From contig JAUCBJ010005881.1 in the NCBI GenBank assembly GCA_032718475.1, forward strand, positions 1 through 64,000: DNA of 64,000 nt. Direction: 5' to 3'. Positions within the stretch are counted from its first letter, which is position 1. Each line of letters starts with the position of its first letter. A program made the position numbers and the translations under genes. A model generated the notes under the pieces. It worked only from the letters and a program-made list of their open reading frames with translations. It was not told the DNA's origin and did no database searches. This DNA is from Nemertoderma westbladi (Eukaryota > Animalia > Xenacoelomorpha). Positions 8,690 through 32,650 of the stretch are shown one piece after another.

Positions 8690-9172
8690 CAATGCGCGGC
8701 AATCATTACCAAATCAACCGGATTTTAAGAAATTATGGGTTTTTTTGGAGACGCTGATCACGAATATGACTATCAAAAAATCATATCATCCAAAAAAATT
8801 CGATTCTTGCAGTTTGTATAATATTATAATAATGTAATAATATTTATAACTAGTTTCCATCGTGATCAGCGACCTCGGAAACGTTAAGAATTATCAAATC
8901 AATCACAACATGTTTTAGTTTGACTATTTTTACTTGTACTTTTCGTCCTGGGGGACCAAAATAGCCCCAAAATGACGGTTCCATTGCCAGAAAATATCAT
9001 AACATGTTTATATAACAAGTTTTATCGTGATCAGCGACCTCGAAAACCCTTATACCATCAAAATTGTAATTTTTGAGTCAAGGTCTAAAAACTTTCTAAA
9101 ATGACAACCACCCCCCCCCCCTCCCGCGCGGGGGCAATGACGTAGTTAAATAGCCCGGGCCAGATAGAGTTA
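8690..9172. mobile_element. Probable non-autonomous DNA transposon end fragment (TTAA-ended, piggyBac-like)
   Basis: Repeated GTGATCAGCGACCTCG motifs and a terminus ...GGGCCAGATAGAGTTAA; no matching other end found. Confidence 0.3.
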
Positions 9173-10449: not shown

Positions 10450-11324
10450 GTAACACAAGCGTTTTTAACCTAACCTTGTTTATGAACCCTTTTATATGTT
10501 GTGACCGAAGTATATATTTAATTTCAGCAAAATTGTCGAACATTTTTTCTTTAAATAAGTCAAACATTTCACAATATAAGTGGGCGAATAATTATTACGT
10601 GGTAAATCTATATATAAATCTAAACTATACAATATACAGTAATAATAATTAATAGTTATTGTTAATTAATAAATATATTGGTAATTCAGTAAGTGAAAGT
10701 ATTACAAATGAGTGCAAATAATAAATATACCAACCTGTAACCAACATTAAAACATTTTGGATTTTTATATTCCACGAATTTATGAAATTAATATGATAAA
10801 CGATAAACCCCACCACCACCGCCCACGTAAATAAATGACACGGATCTGATACACTGCGCTATCCCAACAGCAAACCGTATAGGGTGAGTTAAAGTAATTA
10901 AGAGACCTGCCAATAAGGCAGTAGCTGCGAGCGCAACCAACGCAATTACGGGCTGCTACGCAACACAGTTAGCAATCAGAATGGAATACAGAATCGATTA
11001 TATTACTCCTGTTGTCAGGCAACCAAACAGATTGTATTGTTTCTCATGAACAATGACACATCGCTTTTATAATAGGAGAGAATGGCAGCACAGCTGTACC
11101 AGATAGAATTCCATATCGCTACTGTATTACTGTTACTATTATTATAACTACCCGCTTTGTCACGCTCTATCGCAAACAGCTAATGAAGATATGTATTTTC
11201 CCTGTCACTGAACTTCTTGTGCAACCAGCATGGATCACTGCACCGTTATTCCAGTCACTAAACTTATTGTCACCAACACGGCTGCTCTGCGTCCAAATAC
11301 CTGGCACCATGTACAGTACAGTGC

Positions 11325-11868
11325 AGTACCTGTCACCAATACTTTGTTCCAAGGGGTGCGTGTAGCAGTACCTGTCACCAATACTTTGTTCCAAGGGGTG
11401 CGTGTAGCAGTACCTGTCACCAATACTTTGTTCCAAGGGGTGCGTGTAGCAGTACCTGTCACCAATACTTTGTTCCAATGGGTGCGTGTAGCAGTACCTG
11501 TCACCAATACTTTGTTCCAAGGGGTGCATGTAGCAGTACCTGTCACCAATACTTTGTTCCAAGGGGTGCGTGTAGCAGTACCTGTCACCAATACTTTGTT
11601 CCAAGGGGTGCGTGTAGCAGTACCTGCCACCAATACTTTGTTCCAAGGGGTGCGTGTAGCAGTACCTGTCACCAATACTTTGTTCCAAGGGGTGCGTGTA
11701 GCAGTACCTGTCACCAATACTTTGTTCCAAGGGGTGCGTGTAGCAGTACCTGTCACCAATACTTTGTTCCAAGGGGTGCGTGTAGCAGTACCTGTCACCA
11801 ATACTTTGTTCCAAGGGGTGCGTGTAGCAGTACCTGTCACCAATACTTTGTTCCAAGGGGTGCGTGTA
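11325..11868. repeat. 42-bp near-perfect tandem repeat (~13 copies)
   Basis: AGTACCTGTCACCAATACTTTGTTCCAAGGGGTGCGTGTAGC units with very few substitutions and no spacers. Confidence 0.95.
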
Positions 11869-12195
11869 TTCAATTTCAATACGAACTTCAAAACTTACCC
11901 AATACCGGTACTTCCAGCATCATCCTTCTTTCTAAACTGAAACATTGTGAGATTACTATAAAGCAACCATAGCAACACTTCAGTCTTCCAATGGTGAGGC
12001 AGAAAGGTATCTGGCTAGGTCGTATCCATAGTGATTTGTCGCAATATATTAAGATTGATTGATTCTGTGCAATCAAGTATTATAAACTATAGCCTACTAA
12101 TGTAAAAATTTAATATAAACTTAATTTTCCTAACTAAATTCTGTGAAAACTCTTTTAAATTATTGTACTTCTAGTGCAGTATTAGTAATTAAGTA

Positions 12196-12548
12196 ACCAT
12201 AAATTCATTTATGGTTGACCAAAAATTAATTTATGGTCGACCAAAAATTATTATTTTATGGTCGACCATAAATTAATTCCTGGTAGTTTGAATTTCCCGG
12301 TAACTTGTAGGTCGAGATTTTGACTGGCTATTCATTGGTTAGGGTAGTGGGAAACCATCCAATTGCACGTTTATTTGAATGTAATTACTTAAAGTAACCA
12401 ATGAATGGCCTGTCCAAATCTCGCCGTACAAGGTACCGGGAAATTCAAACTTCCAGAAATTAATTTAAGGTCGACCATAAATTAATAATTTTTCGTCGAC
12501 CATAAATTAATTTTTCGTCGACCATAAATTAATTTTTGGTCGACCATA
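12196..12548. mobile_element. Foldback/MITE-like palindromic element
   Basis: Arms are inverted copies (TTTGAATTTCCCGGTA / TACCGGGAAATTCAAA; CTATTCATTGGTTA / TAACCAATGAATGG) with GGTCGACC-containing subrepeats. Confidence 0.75.
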
Positions 12549-13499
12549 TGAAACTTTCGTGTGTTAAAAAGAAGTGGAAGTGGAAAGGCAGAATTTCTCC
12601 AACAAAAAATGGGGGGGGGGGGGGGGGGGGGAGTGCAGACTCAAAATTAACACATCTAATCAAAATTAATGAAATCATTTATTTGTATTATTACTGGAGG
12701 TCACTTTAGTGTGTATATCTGTCTGTCTGTTTGTCTCTTGCTCTGTCTGTGTGTTTGTCTGTCAAAAATTGAGAAATCAATAAAATTAACAAAACAATCA
12801 TAAATTTATGGTTTTTTTTACCTATTATTGTATATTTATTTAACATATGTATATATTTGTAAAAATAATTGAAAATAACCTTTGGTAATTGAAACCCAAT
12901 TATCTAATAATGAGATTATTGATTTATATTTAATTATTTTATTTTATTTATTTTATTTTATTTATTTAATTTATATAAGTGCTGAGCTGCTAACAGGTAT
13001 CCAGCGGGGCCTGGCGAATTTATTTAAAAATCTTCCTCACAAGAAGGGGGGGGGGGGGGGGGGGGAGATTCTCCAAGGTGGGTGCCTTGGCCCCCTCCCC
13101 CCCCCCCCCCCCCCAACCTGGCTACGCCATTGTTATAATGTCTACATCAATATCAATTGAATGTTCGACTGCAGCTATGTGATAATAAAGCCTTCATCTA
13201 AAGTTATAATATGCAATAAAATCTCTCTGTAACGCCGTTAAAATTTAAAATTTTCGACTACAATAAAAATACGATTACTTTTGCTACAAACAGTTTACAA
13301 CGCACTACAGTAGTGCTGTAGATCGCATCAATAATCCCTATGGCCAGCAATTCAACTTCTTATGTAACGGTACTGACTGAACTGTACAATCGATACAACA
13401 CTCGCAATGTTATATAACTCTTTGGGAATGAATCCAATGCAACTACGGAGAGATATGTAACAAGGGATTATTAGGAATTATATAGAACGAGTTGGGATT

Positions 13500-14789
13500 G
13501 TTAACTAAACGTTTACATAACGGCTGTGAGATAGTTAACTAAACGTTTACATAACGGCAGTGAGATAGTTAACTAAACGTTTACATAACGGCAGTGAGAT
13601 AGTTAACTAAACGTTTACATAACGGCAGTGCGATAGTTAACTAAACGGTTACATAACGGCTGTGAGATAGTTAACTAATCGGTTACATAACGGCTGTGAG
13701 ATAGTTAACTAAACGTTTACATAACGGCTGTGAGATAGTTAACTAAACGTTTACATTACGGGAGTGAGATAGTTAACTAAACGGTTACATAACGGCTGTG
13801 AGATAGTTAACTAATCGTTTACATAACGGCTGTGAGATAGTTAACTAAACGTTTACATAACGGCAGTGAGATAGTTAACTAAACGGTTACATAACGGCTG
13901 TGAGATAGTTAACTAAACGTTTACATAACGGCTGTGAGATAGTTAACTAAACGATTAAATAACGGCTGTGAGATAGTTAACTAAACGGTTACATAACGGC
14001 TGTGAGATAGTTAACTAAACGTTTACATAACGGCTGTGAGATAGTTAAGTAAACGGTTACATAACGGCTGTGAGATAGTCAACTAAACGTTTACATAACG
14101 GCTGTGAGATAGTTAACTAAACGGTTACATAACGGCTGTGAGATAGTCAACTAAACGTTTACATAACGGCTGTGAGATAGTCAACTAAACGTTTACATAA
14201 CGGCTGTGAGATAGTTAACTAAACGGTTACATAACGGCTGTGAGATAGTTAACTAAACGTTTACATAACGGCTGTGAGATAGTTAACTAAACGTTTACAT
14301 AACGGCTGTGAGATAGATAACTAAACGTTTACATAACGGCTGTGAGATAGTTAAATAAACGTTTACATAACAGCTGTGAGATAGTTAACTAAACGTTTAC
14401 ATAACGGCTGTGAGATAGTAACTAACCGTTTACATAACGGCTGTGAGATAGTTAACTAAACGTTTACATAACGGCTGTGGGATAGTTAACTAAACGTTTA
14501 CATAACGGCTGTGGGATAGTTAAATAAACGTTTACATAACGGCTGTGAGATAGTTAACTAAACGTTTACATAACGGCTGTGGGATAGTTAACTAAACGTT
14601 TACATAACGGCTGTGGGATAGTTAACTAAACGTTTACATAACGGCTGTGGGATAGTTAACTAAAGGTTTACATAACGGCTGTGAGATAGATAACTAAACG
14701 TTTACAAAACGGCTGTGGGATAGTTAACTAAACGTTTACATAACGGCTGTGGGATAGTTAACTAAACGTTTACATAACGGCTGTGAGAT
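13500..14789. repeat. 32-bp satellite (GTTAACTAAACGTTTACATAACGGCTGTGAGATA-type), left part
   Basis: Visible array; resumes at 29270-29287 and 47900-48316 after the two LTR insertions. Confidence 0.95.
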
Positions 14790-14918
14790 TATAGAATTAT
14801 ATTCTCTAAATGCCGTGGATTTTCAAAATTTTTATTTTATTCGAATTAACTTTGCTAAAGATTACATTAAGTCCTCATTTGTATTTGCTATATCTATTTG
14901 TACGATGATTAGTCAAGT

Positions 14919-15003
14919 GGTTCAGTAGCTCAGTCGGTAGAGCGTTGGAAATTATATGTAGTGTGTATTGATTTCGAATCCTAGTAAGTGCGAATTATTT
15001 TTT
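14919..15003 (+). ncRNA. tRNA-like Pol III module embedded in LTR U3 (second copy 27501-27585)
   Basis: TAGCTCAGTCGGTAGAGC (A box/D arm), GA(G/T)TTCGAATCC (B box/T loop), T6 run; acceptor and anticodon stems do not pair, so it is not a functional tRNA. Confidence 0.55.
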
Positions 15004-15069
15004 GTGCAGAATTTCAACTCATTTAAATTGGCCGCTACAAATTAATTGCATTTACTCGAAGTAAGGTTA

Positions 15070-15240
15070 ACCAATGAGACTGTAGTTATTAGATTGTAAC
15101 CAATGTCGTACGAGTTATATATTTGCTGGACCAATAGCTATCTTTAAAAACCTGTTAGAACTCATAGAACAATCGAGAATTTTCTCGATTGATTGTGGCA
15201 CAAATTTGGTATAAAAGGTGCGATTTCGTTCATTAGTTAT
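15070..15240 (+). promoter_or_regulatory. Putative Pol II promoter of element 1 LTR
   Basis: Three CCAAT motifs, TATAAAA 15210-15216 and an Inr-like TTAGTT ~25 bp downstream. Confidence 0.6.
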
Positions 15241-17497
15241 CTCTCTCTATCTTTCTTTCTCAGTTACATTATTTCAGATTACATTGTTTATTGTATAATA
15301 GTTATCGTTTGATTTTGTAATAAAAGTTAGAAATACTTGTCACATCTGCCCTTTTCTATCTGTTTTATCATGCTTCACCACGGTGAACCCAACTGAGGGA
15401 CAGGATGGCTGGCTAGACATCGGGCCGCAGCAATGAACGGGAACATCAAAGGAATGTAGACAGGAATCAGGAATGATATCATCTTAGTTATTCGCCCATC
15501 GCCTGAAAGGTTAGACAGCGTTCGATGCCTTGCTACCTAAGTATAAGACCAAAGATCGAAGGTAGAGGTAGTGACACGCTGTACGCCTAAAATTACATCT
15601 AGGGACTGTACTGTCTTAATTCAGGAAAAAACCGCAGTAGACCTTCATATTCCTACGGGGGGGGAGAGGAGAGAGCTCAGGCAGAGATACTAGTACGCAG
15701 ATAGGACGTAGGCACACCGGTACAAGGCATACACATTGGTAGGGTGCAGCAAACTGTACGCCTAACTCTTGCTAAGTACAGGTGCGTCTGCGACTATTTG
15801 TAGTACAATGGTGTCCATTGCATCAGAACTTGTCGGCCAGGAGAGTTGCTGCGTTTCACCTGAATTAGGATTGTACTGTTCAGGCGGTAGGGCAGTTTAC
15901 GACTAGGCGCAAATAAATTGAGGCTAATTAGGGATACTAACATCTACCGTGTCCCCGCCGACATCCTGATAGGAAGTTACCAAGCCCACCTAGGTAACCA
16001 AAATTCTAGATAAGAACGCCAGGCTAGCTATTAGTAACCGTACGCCTACTGTAGTAAACTAACACATTTCTTCTTAGTATTAGGGACCTGGTAAATTAAA
16101 ATTGCCGAATTCTGGGCGTAGTATTAATCTCATGCCAGAATTTGAGTCCTGGAAATACGCAAGAGGGGAAGGAGCCTTATCATTCGTGAGTATTGGCCCT
16201 ACAAGTTACAAAATTAGAATATTCGTAAAATGCACACCGTACCCAGTAATTATATATGTGAAGGAGCAAAACTGATCTTGACTGTTCAGAATTAACACAC
16301 GCGCGTTAAAAATTATTTACACCTCAAAATATATAAAATTAACTTTTGTCCGTACTGCGCTTTGCCCGCTAGTTAGACATCTCCAAATCTCTGCACCTAG
16401 CTAGCGTCTCTTTCGCCCAACCATATAAATCACACCGCGGCAAAGTATACGAGCCCTTTAGTCCGTCAGCGAGTCAGCCTGATTTTAGGATTCGCTGCGC
16501 GGGATTTTGTTTTATCGAAGTTTGTCTGTTCGTAGACTGTTTTCTGCCTTACCGGTTATAAGGGACCAATACTGCAATATATTCGCTTACTTGGAGTTTA
16601 CTGTTTTGGTGAGAAGGTCGGATTTATGATTTGATTCACAAACTTTACAGTAAGATATTGCAGGTATTGTTACTGTCTCTTCGAATTAGTAGGAATGTGT
16701 TTTACTGAACTACAGTTCGGTAGGACTAAAGTTATTTGAAAATTTTGTATTTTGAGGTAAAAGTTTATATTTGATTAGCTAAGTGCTAATTTTTTGAAAT
16801 AAAATTTTGATTTGAACCGCGTGTAAAATTTTTGGAATTGAATACCGGTGTTTAAAAGGATTTAAATACCATATTGTACCGGTACAAAATTTTCGTAAAA
16901 GTAAAACCTAACTCTTTTGTTTTTCAGGATTCAGAACTCATTTCTAGACTGTAACGAGAGCAAGACCGTGTTTAGCAAGTTTGGGAGATAGATAACCCAA
17001 CAACTTTGGTTGGGAAAATCGCACTTCGTCCGCAACGCTGGAAACGGAAAGGTTCACGTCCGGTTTGTATCTGGGAATCTGTTTTTCTGGAGAATTATTG
17101 GAGTGGGTGATTTCGAAAAGTTGCATAAATAAGTTAGGCATTACAGTATTAGTTAAAATTTATTGTGGGTTCCACTGTCTCAAGTATTTATGCATTCCGT
17201 ACGATTTCTTTGTTCATTGCTGAATTAGTCCGTATTATTGTATTTAATTTACCTTTTGATAACGCATATCGTTATCCGATTTATTTGTTATAAAATTGGC
17301 CGCTAGGCTAATTTTATTATATACTTATTCCGTGACATTTATTTGCTGTAAAATTGGCCGTTTAGGCTAATTTTATCCATCTGCTATAAAATCGGCCGGT
17401 AGGCTAATTTTATATGACTGTAATTAGTACTGTTTAAATATAAATACGGTAAATTTGATACTTTGACACTCACTTTACTTGACTTACAACTACTGAA

Positions 17498-20400
17498 ATG
17501 AGTGACAAACAAGACTATACGAAGAATACACCTACCGACTATGACTCATGTGATGCGGATAAGTCAGCAGCGGAAGAACTACAAGGGAAGACTCGCGAGC
17601 CTACCGAACCTACACCGTGTGCGTCACCAGTACATCCAACGGGAGTACCGGATGCCGTAGTACGAGGCGACGGCAGGACCGAGGACTTTCTAACTGTTCC
17701 GCAACCTAGATATAGGGAAACGGACATGGTAAGTTCAGTAGGAAGCCAGGAGAGCGTGGTTAGAAGCGTCGGCGGATACATGGCGCATATTACCAGGAGT
17801 ATTGGAGAAGGCCAACGCATATTAGACGAGTTGACCGCTCCGATGTCTCGGTTTGAGTTCTACACCCTCCAGGTTAGAGTACAAAGTAGAGTACATAAGT
17901 CCGTAGATAACCTTATCAGTCTACAAGATCTAGCTAGACAGAGACAGGATATGGATACTCAACTTAGAATCCTCGAGAAACTAATGATCGCTAGAGAGAA
18001 ACTGATTCAGTTTAAGTCGACAATTAGGCAGATACAACAGGAACAAGCGGACCAGTTGTTAGGTGAGTCAGTTTCGGACGAATTATTGCAACCCGAGGAA
18101 GAACAGGAACTGTATAGGCTGGATGGACAATTGAAACACCTGACGGATCACTTACGCATGTGCGGCGAGGACGTCGGAGATTGGGAAACCGTGCCGGAGG
18201 CTACGAGGGAAACTTCACTCGCACAAATCGAACCGGCACCGGGAACACTAGATCAATCACTGGTGAGTATTCGCAGCGAAATTGGCGAGGTGAGTATGGC
18301 TACGTCAGAAATTGCTCGACAACAGCAGATCTACAGACAACAACAGGAGTGGGAGGAACAAACTCAATTGCTAATGGCACAAGCAGCAGCAGAAGAAGAG
18401 AAACTACGCGTTGCGAATGTTGCGAGAATCTCTCATCTGCAAGAACAAGCTGAGTTGGAAGCAGCCGAAATGGAAAGGTTAGAGTTGGACATTGCACAAC
18501 AAGCGGCAGCGGCCGAGTTAGCGCAACGAACGGCAGCGGCCGAGTTAGAGCGACAAGCGGCAGCGGCAGCGGCAGTGGCAGCGTCCGAGTTAGAGCGACA
18601 AGGGTTAGCTTCAGAAGTGAGAACCGAAATGAAAAAACGGCAAGTAAAGGCTCAGTCAGCTATACGACAAGCGGAGTTCGAGGCGCAACAACAACAAACG
18701 GAACAACGCGAGAAAGAAGTTAAACTTCGTTTCGAACTTGAGAAGAAGGCGAGAGAATTAGCCAACGCCAAGGAAGATTTGGATCTACAAGCCCGCGACC
18801 GATCGATGAGATCTCGAGACGGACATGATTTAGACCAGATGGAGGTAAGGCACCGCCAAATCCAGGAACGAATGAAGGAAGGTTCGATAGGAGCACCTGG
18901 ACGGGAACGACAATTGGTTAAAGACTTATGTCAAAGATTCCCTCAAGTAACTCCTATGTTTGCACCAGTTACGACTAAGGAACCTGTTTTGATTGCTGGT
19001 AGTAGTAATATTTCTCCTATCCATGGTGCGACAGAACACAGGTTTGTTATTCCGGACAAGTTTACACCGCCAAGAGCAACGTCATCGCCTATTCCGAAAG
19101 TCAAGGTAAGTAACCCACCGATTACAGATCGTAGTAGTTTGTTGACCGCACCTGCACTACTGACGACTAAACAGGTGAGTCCACCTTCGACACCAAAACC
19201 CGCCAGAACATACACGTACCCAATGACTTTTAGGCCTACAAGGCCTTTAGATTCAAACGCTGTCATTCGACCACCGAACCAGTTTACATCGCAATCTACG
19301 ACTTCGAGGAAGACTTGTGAGCCTACCGAACAACGGAGACCAGTGGATACGCTACCGTTCAACCAGTTTACATCGCAATCTACGACTTCGAGGAAGACTT
19401 GTGAGCCTACCGAACAACGGAGAACAGTGGACGATGTTCCGAAACGGAATGTTAGAATTCGAACGACACAACGGACGCGAGCACGTCAGCCACCGTATCC
19501 AGGTGACAGTAGTACTTCGAGTGAATCGGATTACCCGAAACGCGAGGTATTTAGAACAGGAGCGGCTGACGAATATAAACGTGAGCGTTCAGATAACTCC
19601 TTTATCGATAATCCTCCACAAAATACACCAACACAAAAGGCGTTACAACCAACGGACGCAATTAGTACGCAACAACTCGCCGAAATAATGCGCCCAGTTG
19701 TAGACAAGTTGGCTCAGATAGAGAAACGTTTAGAAGAAACTCAAACTGATAGTTCGCGAGGTAACGAGTTCGAACACTCTAGACACCCGAAGCAGCAAAG
19801 AAAACAACCCTCGAGAAACACTTCGTATCAAGGAAAAGCGCCAAGACGAGAGAACATCAACTCGATTGTCAACCAAGGACGCGAAACTTTGAACGTGGCC
19901 GAGGAGATAGCGAAATTCGCCGCCAGACAAGGTTTACCGGTACAACAACCACCGAAGTTTTCAGGTAACTCGAAACATTGGCACACCTTTGTGGACTACA
20001 TCGAAACACAAATAGCAGCGTGCGCCTTTACATCGAGGGAGAAATTCAACTACCTGCTACAAACGCTGACGGGAGAACCGAAACGTCTAGCGGAGACCTT
20101 TGTCGGTGTACCAGATGCCTTCGAACTAGCGTATGATCGCTTAACTTCAATTTACGGTGGCACGGTGAGTATGGCTAAGTCAGTGATAGATGAACTCTGT
20201 AAAGGGGGGGCTATAACAAAACCCGTTGACTTACTAAAATTAGCTGACGAGATTAAGAACGCCATTACTACACTACGCTCGATTGGACAACTTGACTACG
20301 CGAACACTCCGACAGTTCTATTGAAAATAATAGGAAGATTACACCATCGACTTCGTCGGGAGTGGCGAAAGATAGAATATCAGCGAGAAGAGAGAGGCGG

Positions 20401-23400
20401 ATTCTTGAAGTTGGAAGACGTCTACTTACTGATATCCAGAGAGGCAGTCGTTGAGACGCGTTCGAACTACACGGACCAACATATCGTGGCGGAGGGAATA
20501 ACATTACCATCCTCGAACCGACAAAAACCCCAAACAACATCCACCAAGACGGTTACTTACGCCACATCGACCGACACCCGACAATTTTCGGACAATAATA
20601 AGGTATCCGCACCAATTGGAACCAAACAGATCCGACAGCAACTGACCACAGATTTTAGCGGTTGCCAATATTGTGAACGGCTAGGTAAACGACATACTAG
20701 CCATAAACTGAGAGGTTGTCGACTATTCTGCGAATTGAACTCGGAGGAACGACGATTACAAATACGACCATTGGACTCTTGTTGGCGGTGTACGCTACAT
20801 GGACATGTCTGTAAGGACTGCCCAAATACAGACACCTGTCCTTCTTGTGGACGCAACCACGACGGCTTGCTACATACAGACAGTCATACGCCGACCAAAC
20901 GCTTCACCAGGGAACACCCGGAAGCTGCAGCAAGATGCAACACAGCATATAAGGGTCGAGAGTCGAAAACAACACCGACATTCGTGACGCACATTAGAGA
21001 TTGTTTCTCGGAACAATCAGGATCGTCAGATGAAGAGTCGGAAGACGAAGACGTTTACTTTGATACTGGAGACGAACAACCATCGATTGCGCTTCTGACG
21101 CCTGATCAACTAAAGGGGTTTAGTATAATACCTGTCAAGATTACTGGCATCAAAGGGAGCAAGAGGATCTACGCTATCCTGGATTCAGCCTCATCTCATA
21201 GCTACGTGGATGAGAAAGTAGCTGATGTTGTGACGGATCTCCGACAAGGTAAGAACGTCAGTTACACCGTAAGTAGTATGCATGGACAACGTGCAATACC
21301 AGTGACACGAGTTAAGTTGAACTTAGACACTCTTCTTCCGAAATCGCAACATAGCGAAAAGGAGAGGTCTTTGTTACCCTTTAAGGATTTAACCTTTGCG
21401 GCCACAAAGGACTTTAGTAACCTACTAGGTCCTGTCCCAGAACAATCCTTGGAGGACCATAAGTACTTCAGACACCTTGGTGTACCTGAATGTCCTGTCA
21501 ACTATAGGTCGGTAGCAATGCTGATCGGGACAGATCAATTCAACCTACATCAAGTGTGGGAAACCAGACCATCGGCAGTCGTAGCGGGAAACGCATACGC
21601 CTGTAGAACGCCGATAGGGTGGTATACTCGAGCGCCTGTGCGCACACTGGATATAAGTGACGAGGAAGACGATATACAAAGTACATGTAGTTTATTAACT
21701 ACAACTTCGACTCATTCCTTTTCACACGACGTAGACTATACTACACTACATTCGACAAAACATGACACGACGTGTGTAGCGAGTATGATAAGTCACAAGG
21801 AGCAGCTAATCCACCAGGTGAGTTTAGAACTTGGGAAGAAGACGAGTCAGCCAGAGATTCCATCGACGACAGATGATAACGCCGGAAGACTTGCGAGCCT
21901 TTCTACACCAGACATATCGCCAGACACGTTACCAGACGTATCACCAGACGCGTTACTAGACGGTCAACCAGACATTTTGCCAGACATATCACAAAATGTT
22001 CTACCAGACACTAGTAACATATTGACAAATAGTAAAGCCGCAGTTTCTCTATTGGAGCGGCCTTCTACAGACAATCAACCAGACACGTTACCAGACGTAT
22101 CGCCAGACGCGTTACTAGACGGTCAACCAGACGTTTTGCCAGACACGTCACTAGATATTTCGCCGGATGTTCCGCGAAACATTTTACCAGACATGTCACA
22201 AAATGTTCTACCAGACACTAGTAACATATTGACAAATAGTAAAGCCGCAGTTTCTCTATTGGAGCGGCCTTCTATTGACAAACAACCAGACGCGTTACTA
22301 GACGGTCAACCAGACGTTTTGCCAGACATGTCACTAGATATTTCGCCGGATGTTCCGCGAAACATTTTACCAGACATGTCACAAAATGTTCTACCAGACA
22401 CTAGTAACATATTGACAAATAGTAAAGCCGCAGTTTCTCTATTGGAGCGGCCTTGTATTGACAAACTACCAAATTTGACACACTTGAGCAACAATAAGCA
22501 CAGTGAAACCTCATGTATTACAGATGTGGGTAGTACCTACGTAAATGTAAATACAGGTGTTACTTTGCGCTCAAGAGACATACCAAACTTGCAACCTATG
22601 GTGAAACCTGGGATTAATATCGGCAGAAAAATAAGTTTACCGAAACCCACTGACCCCATAGAGTTCAAACCACCATTAACGATCGACTTACAAAGTACTG
22701 ACAACCAAGGTAAGAAAACAAGGAAGGACAAATTACTTGTAGACCCGGACGGATCAACAGTCAACAAGGGAATACTTACCGGCGGACCCGTGGGCCCTTC
22801 TAGTAAATCAAAACCTTCCAAATTCTCCATTGACTTACCTGATGACGTCACAAATACTTACGTCGACCGCATTGTAAACCTAACAGATTCTTGGACAAAC
22901 GCTTGCCGAAAATTAGCGTGGATTGTACGTTTTGTACAATACGTTAAAGGCAAACGCGACTTTACACGTCGACTTACATTGACTGAGATTGACAGGTGTG
23001 AAATTAAATTAATTCGCCATTACCAACTGCGATATTTCGCACGCGAATTCACATCTATAAATCAAGGTCAACCAATCAAGTCGTCACCAATATTGAGTTG
23101 GAGTCCGATAATTTATAATGGCTTAATTTGTCATAAATCTCGGCTTCAAAACATTGACTTTAACACAAACTTTAGATACCCAATAATAATATCGCAGCAT
23201 CACGAACTACAACGTTCAATGATACTGGACGCACATTTACATCTGAAACACGCTGGAAGACACCACTGTCTTTCCTACTTACATACAAGATTTGTATTAA
23301 TTAGACCCAGTAAAGCGTTAAGTTCAGTGACACGTACGTGTATTATTTGTAAAAAGGTACATTCTAGAATAGGTACCCAAGAAATGAGTGAACTTCCACA

Positions 23401-24370
23401 AGCACGACTTCAAGCATTCAGACCACCTTTTACAGAGACTGGAATTGACTGCTTTGGTCCCATACATACGAAACGTGGACGTATACTAGTAAAACGCTGG
23501 GGACTGATTTTCACATGTATGTCCAGTAGGGCAGTTCATATTGAACGTGTGATGGATCTTTCCACCAACGCGTTTATACTAGCATTGCGGCGATTTATCG
23601 CTAGACGCGGACTAGTGAAATGCTTGTACTCAGACCAAGGGACAAACTTTGTTGGTGCTCGAAATGAGATTGCTAGAGCCTTTAAGAAATTAGATCATGA
23701 TCAAATCTCAAACGAACTACGTCCTTACAAGATTGTTTGGAAGTTTAATCCTCCAGATAGTCCATGGAGAGGCGGAGTCTGGGAGAGATTGATTAGATCT
23801 ATAAAGACAGCCATGGCAAAGGTCATTCCAGTAAACCACATTTTGACAGACGACCAACTGACAACACTGTTTGTTGAAATCGAGGCAATACTAAATACTA
23901 GACCAATAGTATTAGTACCCGATGACAAACAATCCCAGTTTGCTTTAACACCGGCACACCTGCTTATGCAGGCACCGACTACTTTAACGCCTATTTCTTT
24001 TCCAACAGAAGGCGATAGCTACGGTAGAAAAGCGTGGAAAATCAGGCAACTACTAGCTAACAAATTCTGGGAAATATGGCAAAACCATTATTTGCCCTCT
24101 ATTTCTGCCAGAACAACATGGTACAATAACACCCGCGCATTAAAGCCGGGAGATCACGTGCTGTTAGCGGAAGTGAATCTAAAAAGACGCTTCTGGATAA
24201 CAGGTGTAATTTTAGCCACACATCCATCTATGGATGGAGTGACAAGAACTGTGACAGTACGGACAATTGACGGTCGTACAGTTGACAGACCGACTCAACG
24301 TCTCGTACTTCTTGAAGAGACTCGTAACGAGTCTGGAGACTACAAATCTCCAACTAATGTTAGTAAATAA
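17498..24370 (+). CDS. Gag-protease-integrase polyprotein lacking RT/RNase H (2290 aa)
   Basis: Pao capsid region (PKFSGNSKHW...EKFNYLLQTLTGEP), three Cys/His knuckles, AILDSAS protease, HHCC zinc finger, GIDCFGP / SDQGTNF / GGVWERL DDE integrase with C-terminal RTVTVRT...RP; no YxDD or FGDAS motifs. Confidence 0.93.
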   Translation: MSDKQDYTKNTPTDYDSCDADKSAAEELQGKTREPTEPTPCASPVHPTGVPDAVVRGDGRTEDFLTVPQPRYRETDMVSSVGSQESVVRSVGGYMAHITRSIGEGQRILDELTAPMSRFEFYTLQVRVQSRVHKSVDNLISLQDLARQRQDMDTQLRILEKLMIAREKLIQFKSTIRQIQQEQADQLLGESVSDELLQPEEEQELYRLDGQLKHLTDHLRMCGEDVGDWETVPEATRETSLAQIEPAPGTLDQSLVSIRSEIGEVSMATSEIARQQQIYRQQQEWEEQTQLLMAQAAAEEEKLRVANVARISHLQEQAELEAAEMERLELDIAQQAAAAELAQRTAAAELERQAAAAAAVAASELERQGLASEVRTEMKKRQVKAQSAIRQAEFEAQQQQTEQREKEVKLRFELEKKARELANAKEDLDLQARDRSMRSRDGHDLDQMEVRHRQIQERMKEGSIGAPGRERQLVKDLCQRFPQVTPMFAPVTTKEPVLIAGSSNISPIHGATEHRFVIPDKFTPPRATSSPIPKVKVSNPPITDRSSLLTAPALLTTKQVSPPSTPKPARTYTYPMTFRPTRPLDSNAVIRPPNQFTSQSTTSRKTCEPTEQRRPVDTLPFNQFTSQSTTSRKTCEPTEQRRTVDDVPKRNVRIRTTQRTRARQPPYPGDSSTSSESDYPKREVFRTGAADEYKRERSDNSFIDNPPQNTPTQKALQPTDAISTQQLAEIMRPVVDKLAQIEKRLEETQTDSSRGNEFEHSRHPKQQRKQPSRNTSYQGKAPRRENINSIVNQGRETLNVAEEIAKFAARQGLPVQQPPKFSGNSKHWHTFVDYIETQIAACAFTSREKFNYLLQTLTGEPKRLAETFVGVPDAFELAYDRLTSIYGGTVSMAKSVIDELCKGGAITKPVDLLKLADEIKNAITTLRSIGQLDYANTPTVLLKIIGRLHHRLRREWRKIEYQREERGGFLKLEDVYLLISREAVVETRSNYTDQHIVAEGITLPSSNRQKPQTTSTKTVTYATSTDTRQFSDNNKVSAPIGTKQIRQQLTTDFSGCQYCERLGKRHTSHKLRGCRLFCELNSEERRLQIRPLDSCWRCTLHGHVCKDCPNTDTCPSCGRNHDGLLHTDSHTPTKRFTREHPEAAARCNTAYKGRESKTTPTFVTHIRDCFSEQSGSSDEESEDEDVYFDTGDEQPSIALLTPDQLKGFSIIPVKITGIKGSKRIYAILDSASSHSYVDEKVADVVTDLRQGKNVSYTVSSMHGQRAIPVTRVKLNLDTLLPKSQHSEKERSLLPFKDLTFAATKDFSNLLGPVPEQSLEDHKYFRHLGVPECPVNYRSVAMLIGTDQFNLHQVWETRPSAVVAGNAYACRTPIGWYTRAPVRTLDISDEEDDIQSTCSLLTTTSTHSFSHDVDYTTLHSTKHDTTCVASMISHKEQLIHQVSLELGKKTSQPEIPSTTDDNAGRLASLSTPDISPDTLPDVSPDALLDGQPDILPDISQNVLPDTSNILTNSKAAVSLLERPSTDNQPDTLPDVSPDALLDGQPDVLPDTSLDISPDVPRNILPDMSQNVLPDTSNILTNSKAAVSLLERPSIDKQPDALLDGQPDVLPDMSLDISPDVPRNILPDMSQNVLPDTSNILTNSKAAVSLLERPCIDKLPNLTHLSNNKHSETSCITDVGSTYVNVNTGVTLRSRDIPNLQPMVKPGINIGRKISLPKPTDPIEFKPPLTIDLQSTDNQGKKTRKDKLLVDPDGSTVNKGILTGGPVGPSSKSKPSKFSIDLPDDVTNTYVDRIVNLTDSWTNACRKLAWIVRFVQYVKGKRDFTRRLTLTEIDRCEIKLIRHYQLRYFAREFTSINQGQPIKSSPILSWSPIIYNGLICHKSRLQNIDFNTNFRYPIIISQHHELQRSMILDAHLHLKHAGRHHCLSYLHTRFVLIRPSKALSSVTRTCIICKKVHSRIGTQEMSELPQARLQAFRPPFTETGIDCFGPIHTKRGRILVKRWGLIFTCMSSRAVHIERVMDLSTNAFILALRRFIARRGLVKCLYSDQGTNFVGARNEIARAFKKLDHDQISNELRPYKIVWKFNPPDSPWRGGVWERLIRSIKTAMAKVIPVNHILTDDQLTTLFVEIEAILNTRPIVLVPDDKQSQFALTPAHLLMQAPTTLTPISFPTEGDSYGRKAWKIRQLLANKFWEIWQNHYLPSISARTTWYNNTRALKPGDHVLLAEVNLKRRFWITGVILATHPSMDGVTRTVTVRTIDGRTVDRPTQRLVLLEETRNESGDYKSPTNVSK

Positions 24371-24902
24371 TTAGGAGTTTACAAATAGATTTCCACGTAC
24401 CTGTACACTGTAGTAAAGACAGCGGTAGAATTCCATTGTCTTTATATGTGAACATTGAGGGTAATACCCTTATGTATCACATAGGAGCGGGATTTGTAGG
24501 TATAAGAAATGGAATTATACTTGGAACTCACAATATTGAGACATTTTCGAAACTTTAGACAATCCATTTGGATTTGAAAAAATTTTAAAATTTTCTCCAG
24601 TGAATAGATTTCAGGGTACAGTCGGGTGGAACTTAAAATTAGAGAAACAAGAGAGGAAGACTTGCGAGCCTTTCTTAAAATTTTAATTAAATTTTACACG
24701 GTCTTGTTTCAATAAGTTACGTCAAAATAGACTTCCCTATATTTATTACTAATTCTTGATTGCTTATTTTCTGATAATAGTTTGGGATCAAAAAGTGAGT
24801 ATTTTAGACTCACAGCCAGTTTAGCCCAAATTCGTTTTTTATTTCGGCAAAAATTTTAGATAAGAAGCAGCGTGTCATTAAAGAAACCCTAGATCTTAGG
24901 CT

Positions 24903-26576
24903 ATGGGTAGGAGGTTAGAGCGTTGTCGAGCCAAAAAAGGCAGACGAAAACTCTCACGTCTCCTCACAACTAACTACAAACTCTGTTGTAATCCCTCTAG
25001 TAGTAATGATTATGTAACTACACCTCTAATTATGGAGAGGATGCGTGTATTGGGCTATTACGTCACCTCCAAGAGCGGTCTTACAATATTATTTAGCAAT
25101 AGAGTCGTCAGTGAATGTTTGCTTAATAACAAACGTATCGTGGAGATTACGGATGAATCACGGCAGACGCGCGCACCTATCGGTCACCTTGGTGATGATT
25201 TCGAAGTAACGACTACGATCACTGACGATCCTTTAGAGGAACTTCTTGAGATAGAAAGGAACCTCCCGAAGAAATCTCAGACGGAGATTCGACAACTTGA
25301 AGCAACAGATGCTATAGTTTGTATACAACCTTCAGAAACCTACCAACCCATAGATCCAGATGATTATGATTATAGTGTGGGAGGAAGCGCTCGACCAATT
25401 GGAGATCTTATATAAGAACGAGTGTGGTACCCTGCCAATACGATGTGTGGTAAATGTGGCGTCGCTGGACATCATTCGACCAAGTGCAGTGGAAAGCACA
25501 TTACTACGACTCAACTAATCTGTGGATGGTGTGGAGATCAAGGGTCTCATACCTTTTATACTTGCTGGAGATTTATGGCTCAATGTACTTATTGCAATAT
25601 AAAAGGGCATCGAGCATCTGAATGCCAACTAAGAGACATACCCTATGAACACGAATCTGTAAAACTCGTGAGAAAACTATTCGATGAGTGGGAAGATTTA
25701 GCCGACGAACACGTATCGGCACAAAGAAGACGATTTCCGATGAGGGCGCATCTTGGATTTTGGGCGGTAAATCCCCAAACGATGATGTCGGAAGGATACA
25801 TCTCCGCTATGCCCCAATATGACGAACTTATCGAGGTAGTCGATATTTTGCCTCACGACAGTCGATTCCGAGTAGTGCGTGAGTATCTATTACAGATTCA
25901 CCCAGACAACAAGAACACGTGGAATTTTCAGAAAGTCGTAAATCGTATCACGTATGGTGAATTTGATCGTTTTCGAACTGAAAAGCGGAATAAAGGAGCT
26001 TGGTTAACCGTCGCATGGGCGTACCGAGCCGCGTTTTACCACAAACGTATACGAGCGAGCGTATTCGAGGAAGAGGAGATCCTAGAGGCGACAAATATAC
26101 CAGCCACTCCGGTTGCGCCGTCTGCACGTCACACTCGGGAGGACGGGCAGGGTAGGATCATAAGGGTCCAGAAAGTTAGCCAACAATTAAAGAAGTCTAT
26201 TAATATAGAAGAACGCAAGGGAGTTGAGCCGACCATTCGAATTACTCGGGATACGGTATCGCTTCCTAGAGAACCAACAGGAGGATCGGGACATACACCA
26301 GCTGATCAAAAGGGGGCGCAAGCTACTCTTGGGTCTGTGTCGTCCGCTTCCCGCGCATTCCCAGACGTTTTACCAACTGTAGTGACAACTGATCGGTCAC
26401 GAGGAATCGGTCGAGGTTTTGGGATGCCAAATAGACGAATTTGCGAGGAAATAGTCGCACCGTCTCCCAACGTCCAAACGAAACCAGTGACTCGCCCCAC
26501 GAGTCCCATATCGCGAGCAAAGTGACCTGTGCGCAGTTTTCGAGGACGCGGCAGGGCTCGATCCACTAAGCGATAA
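24903..26576 (+). pseudogene. Element 1 accessory ORF: zinc-knuckle protein of unknown function, interrupted by in-frame stops
   Basis: ORFs 24903-25415 and 25422-26525 share a frame, separated by one TAA; after TGA 26523 the frame continues PVRSFRGRGRARSTKR*; knuckles CGKC..H..C, CGWC..H..C, CTYCNIKGHRASEC. Confidence 0.75.
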
Positions 26577-27371
26577 AAGGGAGGGCAAGGGTGGACGGAA
26601 GACTCGTGAGCCTTTCTTGTGAATTTGTGATTTATTTGAATTATATGTTTTATATTTAATTAGTAAGTTTTGTATTCTGGAAGAACTCATATTTAGTAAG
26701 ATTTATATTTAGTAAGAATTTATATTTTGCAAGATTTATATTTTATATTTGTGATTATTCCGAACTTATGCAATTTATATTGTTCCGAATACTATGCAAT
26801 TTATATCTTATAAGCAGTATTTGTATTTACAGTGAAATAGAAAGTAAGAGTAGATGGAAGACTCGTGGGCCTTTCTTATAGTTTCATTTGTAAAGTGTTA
26901 TATTTGTATTTAGAAAGTTTTATAGTTAGAAAGTTTTGTACTTAGAAAGACTCATATTTGTAATTATTCCGAACTTATGCAATCTACATTTAGGCACGAA
27001 AGTATTTGTAATTATTTGAATTTATGCAATATTTGAGATGCAATAGTAGATGGAAGACTCGCGAGCCTTTCTTATGATTTCATTTATTTGTATTTGTAAT
27101 TGTTTGAATTTATGCAATATTGAGATGCAATAGATTTATATTGGTGAATTTAATTTAGATTTATATTGTACTTACTTAGTAAAGCCTTAAATATGTAAAG
27201 TTTGAATTTGTAATTATTTTGTATCGAATTATTATGTAGAAAGGAAGTATTGCTTGAAATTTAATTTGTAAATATGTAAGTACGCGACGCCCTAAGTATT
27301 CTATAATTTGATTGATTATTGGTGAAAACCGTATATTTTATGCACGATAATATCCTGTTTTCATGGAGCGG

Positions 27372-29269
27372 TATAGAATTATATTCTCTAGATGCCGTGG
27401 ATTTTCAAAATTTTTATTTTATTCGAATTAACTTTGCTAAAGATTACATTAAGTCCTCATTTGTATTTGCTATATCTATTTGTACAATGATTAGTCAAGT
27501 GGTTCAGTAGCTCAGTCGGTAGAGCGTTGGAAATTATATGTAGTGTGTATTGAGTTCGAATCCTAGTAAGTGCGAATTATTTTTTGTGCAGAATTTCAAC
27601 TCATTTAAATTGGCCGCTACAAATTAATTGCATTTACTCGAAGTAAGGTTAAGCAATGAGACTGTAGTTATTAGATTGTAACCAATGTCGTACGAGTTAT
27701 ATATTTGCTGGACCAATAGCTATCTTTAAAAACCTGTTAGAACTCATAGAACAATCGAGAATTTTCTCGATTGATTGCGGCACAAATTTGGTATAAAAGG
27801 TGCGATTTCGTTCATTAGTTATCTCTCTCTATCTTTCTTTCTCAGTTACATTATTTCAGATTACATTGTTTATTGTATAATAGTTATTGTTTGATTTTGT
27901 AATAAAAGTTAGAAATACTTGTCACATCTGCCCTTTTCTATCTGTTTTATCATGCTTCACCACGGTGAACCCAACTGAGGGACAGGATGGCTGGCTAGAC
28001 ATCGGGCCGCAGCAATGAACGGGAACATCAAAGGAATGTAGACACGAGACAACCCGCAATATCATCTTAGTTATTCGCCCATCGCCTGAAAGGTTAGACA
28101 GCGTTCGATGCCTTGCTACCTAAGTATAAGACCAAAGATCGAAGGTAGAGGTAGTGACACGCTGTACGCCTAAAATTACATCTAGGGACTGTACTTTCTT
28201 AATTCAGGAAAAAACCGCAGTAGACCTTCATATTCCTACGGGGGGGAGAGGAGAGAGCTCAGGCAGAGATACTAGTACGCAGATAGGACGTAGGCACACC
28301 GGTACAAGGCATACACATTGGTAGGGTGCAGCAAACTGTACGCCTAACTCTTGCTAAGTACAGGTGCGTCTGTGACTATTTGTAGTACAACGGTGTCCAT
28401 TGCATCAGAACTTGTAGGCCAGGAGAGTTGCTGTGTTTCACCTGAATTAGGATTGTACCGTTCAGGCGGTAGGGCAGTTTACGACTAGGCGCAAATAAAT
28501 TGAGGCTAATTAGGGATACTAACATCTACCGTGTTCCCGCCGACATCCTGATAGGAAGTTACCAAGCCCACCTAGGTAACCAAAATTCTAGATAGGACGC
28601 CAGGCTAGCTATTAGTAACCGTACGCCTACTGTAGTAAACTAACACATTTCTTCTTAGTATTAGGGACCTGGTAAATTAAAATTGCCGAATTCTGGGCGT
28701 AGTATTAATCTCATGCCTGAATTTGAGTCCTGGAAATACGCAAGAGGGGAAGGAGCCTTATCATTCGTGAGTATTGGCCCTACAAGTTACAAAATTAGAA
28801 TATTCGTAAAATGCACACCGTACCCAGTAATTATATATGTGAAGGAGCAAAACTGATCTTGACTGTTCAGAATTAACACACGCGCGTTAAAAATTATTTA
28901 CATCTCAAAATATATAAAATTAACTTTTGTCCGTACTGCACTTTGCCCGCTAGTTAGACATCTCCAAATCTCTGCACCTAGCTAGCGTCTCTTTCGCCCA
29001 ACCATATAAATCACACCGCAGCAAAGTACACGAGCCCTTTAGTCCGTCAGTGAGTCAGCCTGATTTTAGGATTCGCTGCGCGGGATTTTGTTTTATCGAA
29101 GTTTGTCTGTTCGTAGACTGTTTTCTGCCTCACCGGTTATAAGGGACCAATACTGCAATATATTCGCTTACTTGGAGTTTAATGTTTTGGTGAGAAGGTC
29201 GGATTTATGATTTGATTCACAAACTTTACAGTAAGATATTGCAGGTATTGTTACTGTCTCTTCGAATTA
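27372..29269 (+). repeat. Element 1 3' LTR (1898 bp)
   Basis: Direct repeat of 14790-16688; preceded by PPT-like GGAGCGG; followed by TSD GAGAT. Confidence 0.95.
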
Positions 29270-29287
29270 GAGATAGATAACTAAACG

Positions 29288-30467
29288 TGTAAAGGCTTTT
29301 GCGGAATTAGCCGGTTATTTTCCCGGTAAAGTACTCTGTAGTTGGTTTAACAGGCATAAAAGGCCGTGTCCTTACTGTACTGGTGTTTTAGAGGACATAA
29401 AAGTCATTTCTTCTGTATGTGTACTTTAGCGGACATAATTCGCAATTTTATGACGCAATGCGCCAAATCCTCTGTAAACAGTGTAGCTACCATGACGACG
29501 GCTAACAGCTGATGCTGTACACGTGGAGCCTTTTCTTTGTTCTCTGTTCCTTCTTTGTTCGGTCGACCAATCAGAGTGTTTTTGCCTCTGTGTTAGAGAT
29601 TGTATATAGAAACTCGTGGAGTTGAGTCAGTATGTGATTTTGTCCACAGCCTACAACACAGGCTTTGGAACCTCCGTGTTTCAGTCTTTAGCCCAACATT
29701 AGTAGGCTTAATTATAGAACGTATATCTGTTATCAATCCAAACTCAATAATCATAACTTACTCACTCACTCATAACTTAACAAACCATTCATAACTTAAC
29801 ATTTTACTGCTTTTACTGTCGGTTATTCATTATATTTGTTGATGGAATATTATATTTGGAATACTGATAAATAATCAGACACCCCAATCTTCTTGATATA
29901 CTAAAGGTTAGAGAGACCGGTTACATATAACGATTGCGACTTACATTAAGTGGTTTGAAGTGAATCTAATGCTATTTTATAGGCCCTACATGTATTGTCT
30001 GTTGTTCTCCTTATATGTGACTAAAATTAATGAAGGTCGGCAGATCAGTGTGCAGCATTGTGCAGTATTGTGTATGATTGTGATTGATAACAAAGCATCT
30101 CCTAAAGAATGCGCCATATACGTGAATCTATAGCCATTCCGTTGTGTCTAGTTTAAGTCATAACTCTGTTTATATATTTAAAGCGCCACGTCCTAAAGGA
30201 ACTGTTAATATTTCCCGAAAGTGAATAATATTTGTCAGAGATTATATATATTACGATCAGTCGAATAATACAGTAGGCCTACCCCGCAATACGGTTAGGC
30301 TTCCGAATCCAGTCTCCCGGGTATATCCAGCGGGTGAATGATCGCGCATAGACTGGCTTCGGCTAATGTAGTGTATCAAATACTTGTCATAGGCTAAAGA
30401 TGATCTATCATCTAAAAGACATCCCAATTTGGCAGGTTAAACTGCTAAAGGTCTGAAAACGCGAACA
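29288..30467 (+). repeat. Element 2 5' LTR (1180 bp, TGTAA...GAACA)
   Basis: About 11 substitutions versus 46720-47899 by eye; CCAAT ~29567, TATATA 29603, Inr-like TCAGT 29627. Confidence 0.96.
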
Positions 30468-30734
30468 ATAACAGATATACCTTCTGTATTGCAGTAGGCA
30501 ATAACGCTGAAGTACCGGACAACCGGTACCTAGTAGGCCTGACTACCTAACCACCCGGACCGGTACCTACAGCAGTACAGGTACATCAGTATTATTCGAT
30601 TGTGAAATTGTATACCGGTAGGCTGTTTAAGAGATTAGGGACTGTACACCCCTTGTTTCTTTTGGAGCTTACTTATTTCTGTCAGTTTTATTTATTTGTA
30701 GGCCAGTATTGAGCAGAAGGCGTGTAAGCCTGCT

Positions 30735-31320
30735 CAGATTGTACAGACAATTTGTAGGCTAGACTGTTGTCTGACTGTTGTTAAGTCTGAAGGGACTGTA
30801 GTGTGTGTAGAGCATATGTCCGAAAAAGTACTAGTTAGGAAAGTAGGGGCTGCCAGTGCTGTGAGGTGAACCCCCCAAGAAAGAATAAGTCGTACTACTC
30901 GGTTAGAACGCATACTAACTAACCATTTCGGAGTCTGCATATATTGTAGTTTATTTAGGCTTGATAGTAGTCTGCCAGCGTTTGGTCTGTACCTTGTTTG
31001 TGTAGTTTGTATGGGTAGCGTAATAGTTCTTATTTAGATAATTTGTAGGCTGGATTTTGTCTGACTGTTGTTAGGTCTTGAGAGATTTCGGTGTGTGTAG
31101 AGTGTATGTCCGATAAAGTGCCAGTTGGGAACGTAGGGGCTTCCAGAGCTGTGAGGTAAACCCCCTCGAAAGTATAAGTCGTACTACTGGGTTAGAACGC
31201 ATACTAACTAACCATTTTGGAGTCTGCATATACCGTAGTTTGTTTGGGCTTGACAGTAGTCTGTCAGTATTTGGTCTGCATTTTGTTTGAGTAGTCTGTA
31301 CGCGTAGCGTAATATTTATT
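30735..31320. repeat. ~290-bp diverged tandem duplication in element 2 leader
   Basis: Two copies of AATTTGTAGGCT...AAGTCGTACTACT...GGAGTCTGCATAT...GTAGCGTAATA. Confidence 0.85.
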
Positions 31321-32650
31321 ATTCAGAGTTTATGCGATTATTCGCAACATTCATATCCCCAAGTTTATTCCTACAGTAATTGTGCTTGTTATATATACCG
31401 TTATAGTTAAACTAACCCCGGTACTACATCAGGGCTGCTTGGCGTAGGTAAAGACTGGTGATTTTGTGCCCCGGTCACTCCAGCAGATACCGTGGTTCTT
31501 TTAGCTGTTCAAGTATTTTTAACTACTGATTATTTGTTGTATAAGTACTTGTACCTAATTTAGGGTTTAGTGTACAGTGCTTTCCGAAGGTGATTAGTGT
31601 GTAGGCAGTATATTTGTGTTGTAAAGTGGTTAATAGGCACGTTGGTTCTGGTAGACCGCGGTAATTAACTTCTAGGTAGGAACACTCCGTGATACATAAC
31701 GTAGTACTTATAGCGCCACGGCTATAAGTCGTCAGACGGTGGTATTTTTCTATCTGGACAACGCAGTATATTTACTACTACTTATTATTTTCAAATACCG
31801 TAGTACCCTGTCCTTTGTAATAACCAGATATTCTAACCCTTTGTTAGGCTGGTTAGTAAACTTCTTGTAAAACTACCCTAAAAATTTGTACTTGTAAATT
31901 TTTGTGTTTATTTAGAGATTGTAATCTCACCTCGAATTGTACGTAATTTGTAGTATTAAGTAACTTAGGTAAATTAGAATTATTTGTTTTAGTGTCCAAC
32001 AAGTAGCACTTCACTGAGAGCGCACAGCTTCTGTGTAGTGACTCCCCCCAGAAATAATAACATTTATTTCAAATATTGACAAAACCCATTTAACGGGTAA
32101 ATATATTATAAATCAACTCAAACCGATTTATAAAATAGTAGGCCTGCCATACAACAATTAGGTCTCAAGATCAGTTAGACTACTGCTCAAATAACGGTAA
32201 TCAAGTAAAGCAAAGTAACCAAGTAACCCTAAAAATTCAGAAATTCAATTATTCTAAAATAATTGATATACTATTTACAATAGGCTTATTATATTTATTT
32301 CTATAAATTTAGGCTGAAATTATACCGGTATTCTGTAATTAATTCTAGTCCATAATTATACTTATATATACTATAAGTGTAAGCTGTATACCGGTATTCA
32401 CGATAGGCCTATTATATATTTATATATACTTGTGCTGAAATTACATACCGGTATTCTGTGACTAATCTAGTCTGTGACAATACTTATATATATATACTAT
32501 AAGCATACCGGTATTCTAATATATTATATATATATTACGCTACACTGAGTAGCAGTATCGGTAATTAATTACTAGGCTAACAGTGATACTGAATTACTAG
32601 ACTTGCTTAAACTGTAATATAGCAGTAGGCATTCAACTGTACAAACCAAC

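Follow-up and report, generated by a model that had tools for sequence, protein, structure and literature searches.

Can a retrotransposon that encodes no reverse transcriptase (RT) persist as a family, keeping its own particle proteins and integrase and borrowing the missing enzyme? This question is raised by a contig of the xenacoelomorph Nemertoderma westbladi (GenBank assembly GCA_032718475.1, JAUCBJ010005881.1), of which the first 64,000 nucleotides, referred to here as the window, were analysed. The window holds a Bel/Pao-derived LTR element of 14.5 kb (element 1, 14790-29269) and a second Bel/Pao element that serves for comparison (element 2, 29288-47899); all features of both given below lie on the plus strand. 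An initial annotation, made from the letters alone, had proposed that in element 1 a repetitive linker replaces RT and RNase H and that the element belongs to an evolved non-autonomous lineage borrowing RT in trans. We consider it probable that element 1 is a member of an old non-autonomous Bel/Pao family that has been amplified and would make its own particle and integrase, with RT and RNase H borrowed from a related element, although particle formation, the use of its own integrase and the borrowing itself are what we infer for this family.

The borders of element 1 are well defined. The 5' LTR (14790-16688; 1.9 kb) pairs with the 3' LTR (27372-29269) at 98.2% identity (27 substitutions and 7 gap columns), and the element is flanked by the target-site duplication GAGAT, on the left at 14785-14789, inside an array of a 34-bp satellite, and on the right at 29270-29274. 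LTRs and duplication are thus complete as initially annotated, but the LTRs end in TA...TA and not in TG...CA; a 4-bp duplication with TA...AG ends is formally possible as an alternative. Just before the 3' LTR, a segment ending in TGGAGCGG (27355-27371) resembles the same place in element 2 and is a candidate plus-strand primer tract, with a short G-rich end common to both elements and no clean purine run. An extra 3' frame with three Cys/His knuckles (24900-26525), in this copy interrupted by a stop at 25413-25415, has a homologue among the extra frames in element 2 (E 1e-18; 26% over 178 aa). Element 2 has two long extra 3' frames, 42408-44600 (730 aa) and 44678-46396 (572 aa). Neither gave a Pfam family above cut-off, and the second has the triple Cys/His knuckle region in common with the 3' frame of element 1. 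At 14926-14981, with a copy in the 3' LTR near 27508-27563, the LTR contains what we take to be a tRNA-like stretch with A-box-like and B-box-like parts. It was called by neither ARAGORN nor Rfam, and on both LTR regions Rfam gave no ribozyme and no tRNA and ARAGORN no tRNA.

The two elements stand 13 bp apart (29270-29287), in the same orientation and in one unit of the 34-bp satellite, arrays of which occupy 13496-14789 and 47896-48311. Insertion into this satellite is possibly a target preference of the clade. More widely, both elements are surrounded by satellite and minisatellite arrays (3569-14789 and 47896-59193; periods 11, 22, 30, 34 and 42).

Between the LTRs of element 1, one frame (17498-24370) runs without a break through Gag, protease, linker and integrase, as had been annotated, and encodes a polyprotein of 2290 aa. 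Capsid and nucleocapsid domains of a Bel/Pao Gag are present, as the DUF1759 core (19958-20371; aa 821-958, E 1.1e-10) and as Cys/His knuckles aligned to element 2 (20663-20880), respectively. The aspartic protease region (21150-21625) has DSA at 21182 and GWY at 21617-21625. The DSA motif, described before as intact, is indeed there; it is a minority variant carried by 2 of 98 aligned homologues, within the range of a motif that is very variable among relatives, and the activity of the protease is putative. The pre-integrase helix and integrase (22886-24340), in which SWTNACR begins at 22889, contain DUF5641 and all zinc-finger (H1913, H1918, C1948, C1951) and D-D-E residues (D1984, D2046, E2096), in agreement with the intact HHCC and DDE motifs of the initial annotation. 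Pfam recognized only DUF1759, Integrase_H2C2 (below cut-off) and DUF5641 in the polyprotein. The integrase scored 175 bits on a Bel/Pao profile, integrase and Gag are both of Bel/Pao type, and the best homologues in protein searches, among the 120 listed of 242, were all Bel/Pao-type polyproteins (30-42% identity). As a side observation, the chance that a 6.9-kb frame stays open by neutral decay at the mutation rate derived from the LTRs is about 0.4% (0.14 x 0.027), a low value that means either that the LTRs differed at insertion or that the window was chosen for its open frame.

What lies between protease and integrase is not a recognizable RT. On a profile of RT and RNase H (657 positions, from 102 homologues) element 2 scored 641 bits, and none of the six frames of element 1 exceeded 1.2 bits. 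This bears out, for RT and RNase H and in all six frames, the claim that no RT residue is found between GWY and SWTNACR. Pfam detected neither RT nor Peptidase_A17 in element 1, and it detected Peptidase_A17 in element 2. Eighteen X-read frames from the linker, the 3' region and the 5' LTR and leader of element 1 contained no RT family, while the positive control, a non-LTR-type RT frame of the window (60417-61919; 500 aa; RVT_1 and DUF6451), was detected. A second profile of 920 positions, from the protease end to the integrase, matches element 1 only at positions 7-159 and 708-919, so about 550 profile positions (RT, RNase H and tether) are absent. A very divergent RT concealed in the linker, or an artefact of assembly, is exceedingly improbable: both were tested and are not supported, nothing was found in their favour, the linker has no YxDD-type motif, profile, Pfam, representative-library and ESM Atlas searches were blank for RT (the Atlas match for the linker was unusable), and independent short-read contigs reproduce the junctions. 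A divergent RT, the finding that would have overturned the initial annotation, was thus detected neither by the profile and Pfam searches nor in the X-read frames. Since RT and RNase H are missing from the Bel/Pao order of protease, RT, RNase H and integrase, we class element 1 with the non-autonomous derivatives of Bel/Pao elements; it lacks a function that its replication requires.

The linker from GWY to SWTNACR measures 421 aa and is rich in D (12%), L (12%), S (11%), P (10%) and T (10%), close to the Pro/Asp/Ser/Thr-rich linker of about 400 aa described initially, but only about 45% of it is repetitive. Its first part (21626-21906) is non-repetitive and likely an eroded protease-RT spacer: its approximately 92 aa are near the median spacer length of 96 aa in 100 homologues, it aligns weakly to the spacer, up to profile position 159, and alone it reaches only 1.2 bits in the RT and RNase H profile. 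A Pro/Asp-rich tandem array follows (21907-22471; about 188 aa, 45% of the linker), built of 12/24-bp subunits and of duplications with periods of 183 bp (2.0 copies, 98%) and 207 bp (2.1 copies, 80%), as expected from the tandem duplications of about 180-200 bp noticed before; of the motif that had been counted three times, SKAAVSLLERP occurs three times and exact PDVLPD only twice. The array sits where RT and RNase H would be, and its length differs among copies, mostly in frame. The last part (22472-22885; 138 residues) is again non-repetitive and has no known match, and contigs bridge it to the integrase side. Compared with shorter proteins, the region aa 1200-1860 showed no close relative. 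Probably, RT and RNase H were first lost in frame, and repeats then grew at the scar.

An open frame that lacks RT is in itself ordinary, since 16 of 215 database polyproteins that have both the protease end and the integrase are missing the greater part of RT or RNase H, their joins being clean and variously placed; the nine of these 16 that were looked up are all single-member clusters. One of the 16, P0045, is 98% identical to the RT-bearing P0053 apart from an in-frame deletion. Element 1 might be a dead-end copy, or one of a small set, that lost RT and RNase H in frame during or after insertion while the family at large is autonomous, and both P0045 and the sixteen RT- or RNase H-poor homologues would fit such an origin. 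The simple deletion copies, however, show clean joins and no added array, whereas what stands out in element 1 is amplification, age and a frame-kept array. In public contigs, moreover, the linker has a depth near that of protease and integrase in two runs (X2 and X3, below), with its own divergence and repeat-number variants, and the contigs come from four studies. The dead-end reading is already largely refuted and we regard it as very unlikely. As a separate observation, P0006, P0148, P0225 and P0141 are Bel/Pao proteins from other sources, all in single-member clusters, in which protease and integrase side are connected with little or nothing left of RT and RNase H; RT-less families may be among them, and so may artefacts of gene models. 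A group of RT-less proteins suggested by the tree was rejected as an artefact of counting two groups only, P0006 and P0045 being placed apart.

The stretch or part of it is contained in public contigs from five of the seven runs listed, from four studies (X1-X5); contig depth is not copy number, X1 and X2 may be the source sample of the window itself, and X5, guessed to be RNA, has a depth below 11 in all but one bin. On the internal region of element 1, four runs from four studies gave 12258, 5186, 407 and 42 contigs. Of 30 bins on 21150-23450, all were covered in X2 and X3, 28 in X4 and 24 in X5; in X2 and X3 the linker was about as deep as protease and integrase, and the share running on into unlike sequence was 0 and 0.01, respectively. 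The corresponding shares of 0.24 in X4 and 0.36 in X5, partly at the edges of the stretch, count against an RT-less family, as do an X4 contig of depth 888 that departs from the window sequence at 21878 for 286 letters and a low-depth X2 contig that departs at 21723 for about 200 letters. Both junctions of the linker were recovered in diverged form. Protease and linker are bridged at 21206-21732 (52 other letters, X5), and a contig of that side covers 21643-21878 (19 other letters, X4); array and unique part are joined at 22362-22631 (19 other letters, X5) and 22425-22590 (7, X4), and linker and integrase side at 22655-23059 (12 other letters, X4). Contigs of the repeat array differ by up to 21 of 109 letters, a divergence of about 19%.

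In none of the runs did a single contig reach from protease to integrase or represent a second full-length copy; the evidence for many copies with the same defective structure is thus made up of diverged, junction-bridging short contigs from four studies. Other copies containing RT, which would have pointed to a deletion after insertion, were not borne out: the contigs share both linker junctions, and unlike sequence makes up at most 1% of the depth in the two deepest runs. Since diverged contigs share junctions, length changes keep the frame and protease variants are mostly silent, the RT-less element is most likely an old amplified non-autonomous family and not a one-off deletion, which lends support to the evolved lineage proposed initially. 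Two further observations concern the depth profile. A joint in X1 (depth 137) connects 19421 to 22520, so that the Gag core, the protease and some of the linker are skipped; it represents a derivative with a further deletion. Depth is lower at 19900-21300 than elsewhere, with X4 giving no cover at 19904-20615.

The frame of the family appears to be maintained where its sequence is not. Of the six length changes in the linker whose net size is known, five are divisible by three (+12, -3, -12, -354 and +72; p 0.018), the sole out-of-frame change being -184 at depth 4.7. This count leaves out the joints with unknown filler (21724-21808, 21919-22068 and 22128-22396) and an out-of-frame joint at 23117-23321 (depth 34), which lies on the integrase side and outside the linker, and it counts once the X3 indel cluster at 21926-21941 (listed rows summing to 11, with rows missing) together with an X4 contig of 12 gaps. 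The variant tables comprise the best-supported rows, that is 40 of 186 variant places and, for indels, 12 of 19 and 12 of 44. None of the best-supported 12 among 44 small indels in 10.7 kb lies within the long frame, which makes up 64% of that stretch; AT-rich non-coding DNA may contribute to this pattern. Among the best 40 of 186 variant places, 20 of the 25 listed for the protease are silent, against 31% expected (p 7e-7), compared with 4 of the 12 linker places and all 3 on the integrase side; in the whole-frame list for the internal region only 13 of 29 listed variants are silent. These values fit a linker that is free in sequence and constrained in frame. Selection on the integrase is thinly tested, resting on three sites plus frame-keeping.

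Amplification by duplication of host DNA, as a satellite or a segment, would yield many RT-less copies with no RT borrowed, and the position of element 1 inside a 34-bp satellite array is in line with it. Such duplication would not favour silent changes in the protease or frame-keeping indels, however, and the copy in the window has a clean 5-bp duplication of its own, so we hold this explanation to be most improbable.

A more serious alternative accepts an RT-less family but regards its protein as a passenger, the helper supplying all enzymes and the frame remaining open through a benefit of the RNA in cis (stability, packaging) or through recombination with an autonomous partner that refreshes protease and integrase. 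The protease region is about 10% different from other copies and linker end and integrase 0-3%, which looks mosaic; the silent variation of the protease could have originated in an RT-bearing partner recombining with the RT-less family, and few integrase variants are available. Recombination among family members during reverse transcription is documented (PMC6894440), and mouse IAP 1Δ1 depends on gag and pol supplied in trans even though its fusion works in cis (PMC6466679). Against a passenger protein, the zinc-finger and D-D-E residues of the integrase are all present despite an array divergence of up to about 19%, and contigs leading from protease or integrase into RT are not evident in the deepest runs, so a refreshing RT-bearing partner would have to be rare. 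All in all we judge a passenger protein to be unlikely.

Where, then, might the missing enzymes come from? Element 2 (TG...CA LTRs at 29288-30467 and 46720-47899; duplication AAACG) has RT and RNase H at approximately 37165-38970, the position of the linker, as the initial annotation had noted, but its own gag-pol is interrupted. The integrases of both elements are sisters at 45% identity (SH-aLRT 99) in a quick tree of 62 rows, namely the first 60 matches and both elements, in which both window branches are long. There is no LTR similarity between the elements; what they share is the homology of the extra 3' frames, a similar stretch ahead of the 3' LTR and a common primer architecture. On these sequence grounds, the helper is probably a member of the clade of element 2. 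No closer relative above 36% was found among the 150 listed of 4616, the window proteins are absent from the protein cluster collection, metagenome loci yielded one distant RT-bearing contig (L001, 34%) and viral contigs no related locus.

Priming may also set both elements apart from other Bel/Pao elements, for which a tRNA primer site is typical according to the ICTV profile of the Belpaoviridae (PMC8742986). No TGG occurs within 32 nt after the 5' LTR of either element, and it is from this absence of TGG that the 18-nt site complementary to the 3' end of a host tRNA is judged to be missing. The 11 nt after the 5' LTR of element 1 (16689-16699), its primer-site position, are instead complementary to its own LTR at 15646-15656, the partner site of a candidate self-primer, with 8 Watson-Crick pairs (reached by 11 of 400 controls) or 11 pairs with one G-U (19 of 400), which is weak alone. 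In element 2, the 13 nt after the 5' LTR (30468-30480) are perfectly complementary to the LTR at 29721-29733 (0 of 400 controls), which makes it a Tf1-like self-primer candidate by sequence. Self-priming has been defined by a complementarity to the 5' LTR of 10 bp or more that begins 0-5 nt behind the LTR (PMC6317226); by this definition element 2 qualifies with 13 bp, and element 1 reaches 8 bp, or 11 if one G-U is allowed. In Tf1-type elements the partner site is situated at the 5' end of the transcript. The Tf1 primer is released by RNase H (PMC7175516); by analogy, element 1 would also have to borrow RNase H for this step. A splice-junction primer was found in neither LTR, and the literature searched gave no description of a self-priming Bel/Pao element.

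For the non-autonomous family that we favour, the following course can be envisaged. An ancestral in-frame loss just behind the protease-RT spacer would have left a scar at which slippage could grow the flexible Pro/Asp-rich array, growth being tolerated only in multiples of three because the integrase lies downstream. The RNA would be translated, and its own Gag would package it into mixed particles that also take up helper Gag-Pol. Helper RT and RNase H would then copy the RNA of element 1, possibly primed by this RNA and not by a tRNA, and either its own integrase, suited to the TA...TA ends, or the helper integrase would insert it with a 5-bp duplication. A bolder version, which we put forward tentatively and consider doubtful, is that the lineage outsources reverse transcription only: equipped with its own Gag and an integrase matched to TA...TA, and self-primed, it would take RT and RNase H from distant Bel/Pao families that share no LTR with it, and would outnumber them. 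Self-priming without a tRNA together with sequence-specific machines of its own would make RT and RNase H of such distantly related families usable.

Among non-autonomous LTR elements, TR-GAG keeps Gag without the pol enzymes and BARE-2 is without working Gag, while IAP 1Δ1 is a betaretrovirus-like element. TRIM, LARD, TR-GAG and BARE-2 all rely on the machinery of other elements, TRIM and LARD being non-coding (PMC6696364). With its open frame of 2290 aa, element 1 is unlike non-coding LARD and TRIM, as had been stated, and it keeps Gag, protease and integrase while losing RT and RNase H only, which none of these four classes does. By analogy, the closest working counterpart is mouse IAP 1Δ1, whose deleted in-frame gag-pol fusion is reported to help in cis and which is non-autonomous yet successful (PMC6466679). 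Both have a fusion frame created by an in-frame internal deletion, but IAP 1Δ1 lacks portions of gag and pol and relies on a supply of both in trans, a same-family full-length helper is known for it, and the portion of the account at hand describes no repeat-grown linker (PMC6466679).

With Bel/Pao elements as profiled by the ICTV (PMC8742986) element 1 shares gag and pol between LTRs, the target-site duplication, a single Gag-Pol frame, a DUF1759 Gag, a protease and a C-terminal integrase with DUF5641. It differs from them by the absence of RT, RNase H and a tRNA-Arg/Gly primer site, by its TA...TA ends, by the extra 3' knuckle frame and by its size, the LTR of 1.9 kb and the element of 14.5 kb exceeding the 0.2-1.2 kb and 4.2-10 kb of the profile (PMC8742986). 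Bel/Pao elements are described as metazoan only (PMC3601003). Tf1/sushi, Tcn1 and TAR likewise have no tRNA site and have bases after the 5' LTR that pair with their own LTR (PMC7175516, PMC6317226); these belong to the Ty3/gypsy and Ty1/copia groups, whereas element 1 is Bel/Pao and has only 8 Watson-Crick pairs with a candidate partner site. TARE1 of tomato is an amplified family whose LTRs also start with TA and not TG, but it is Copia-like with 194-bp LTRs, and TA is stated for the start only (PMC3701649), whereas the copy of element 1 in the window has it at both ends. Non-autonomous LTR elements with coding capacity are thus already known (TR-GAG, BARE-2 and IAP 1Δ1), and the layout of Gag, protease, linker and integrase was not found described: in the literature searched, which excludes subscription papers and Repbase reports, we found no family with Gag, protease and integrase but without RT and RNase H.

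The known non-autonomous LTR classes have given up all coding, retain Gag only or are without Gag. If a family retains Gag, protease and integrase under selection and drops RT and RNase H, the two dropped enzymes can be shared between the polyproteins of a mixed particle while the integrase stays with its element. Surveys that collect and classify elements by their RT miss such RT-less families, and an RT-less coding family would show, in a natural setting, which steps of LTR retrotransposition favour action in cis.
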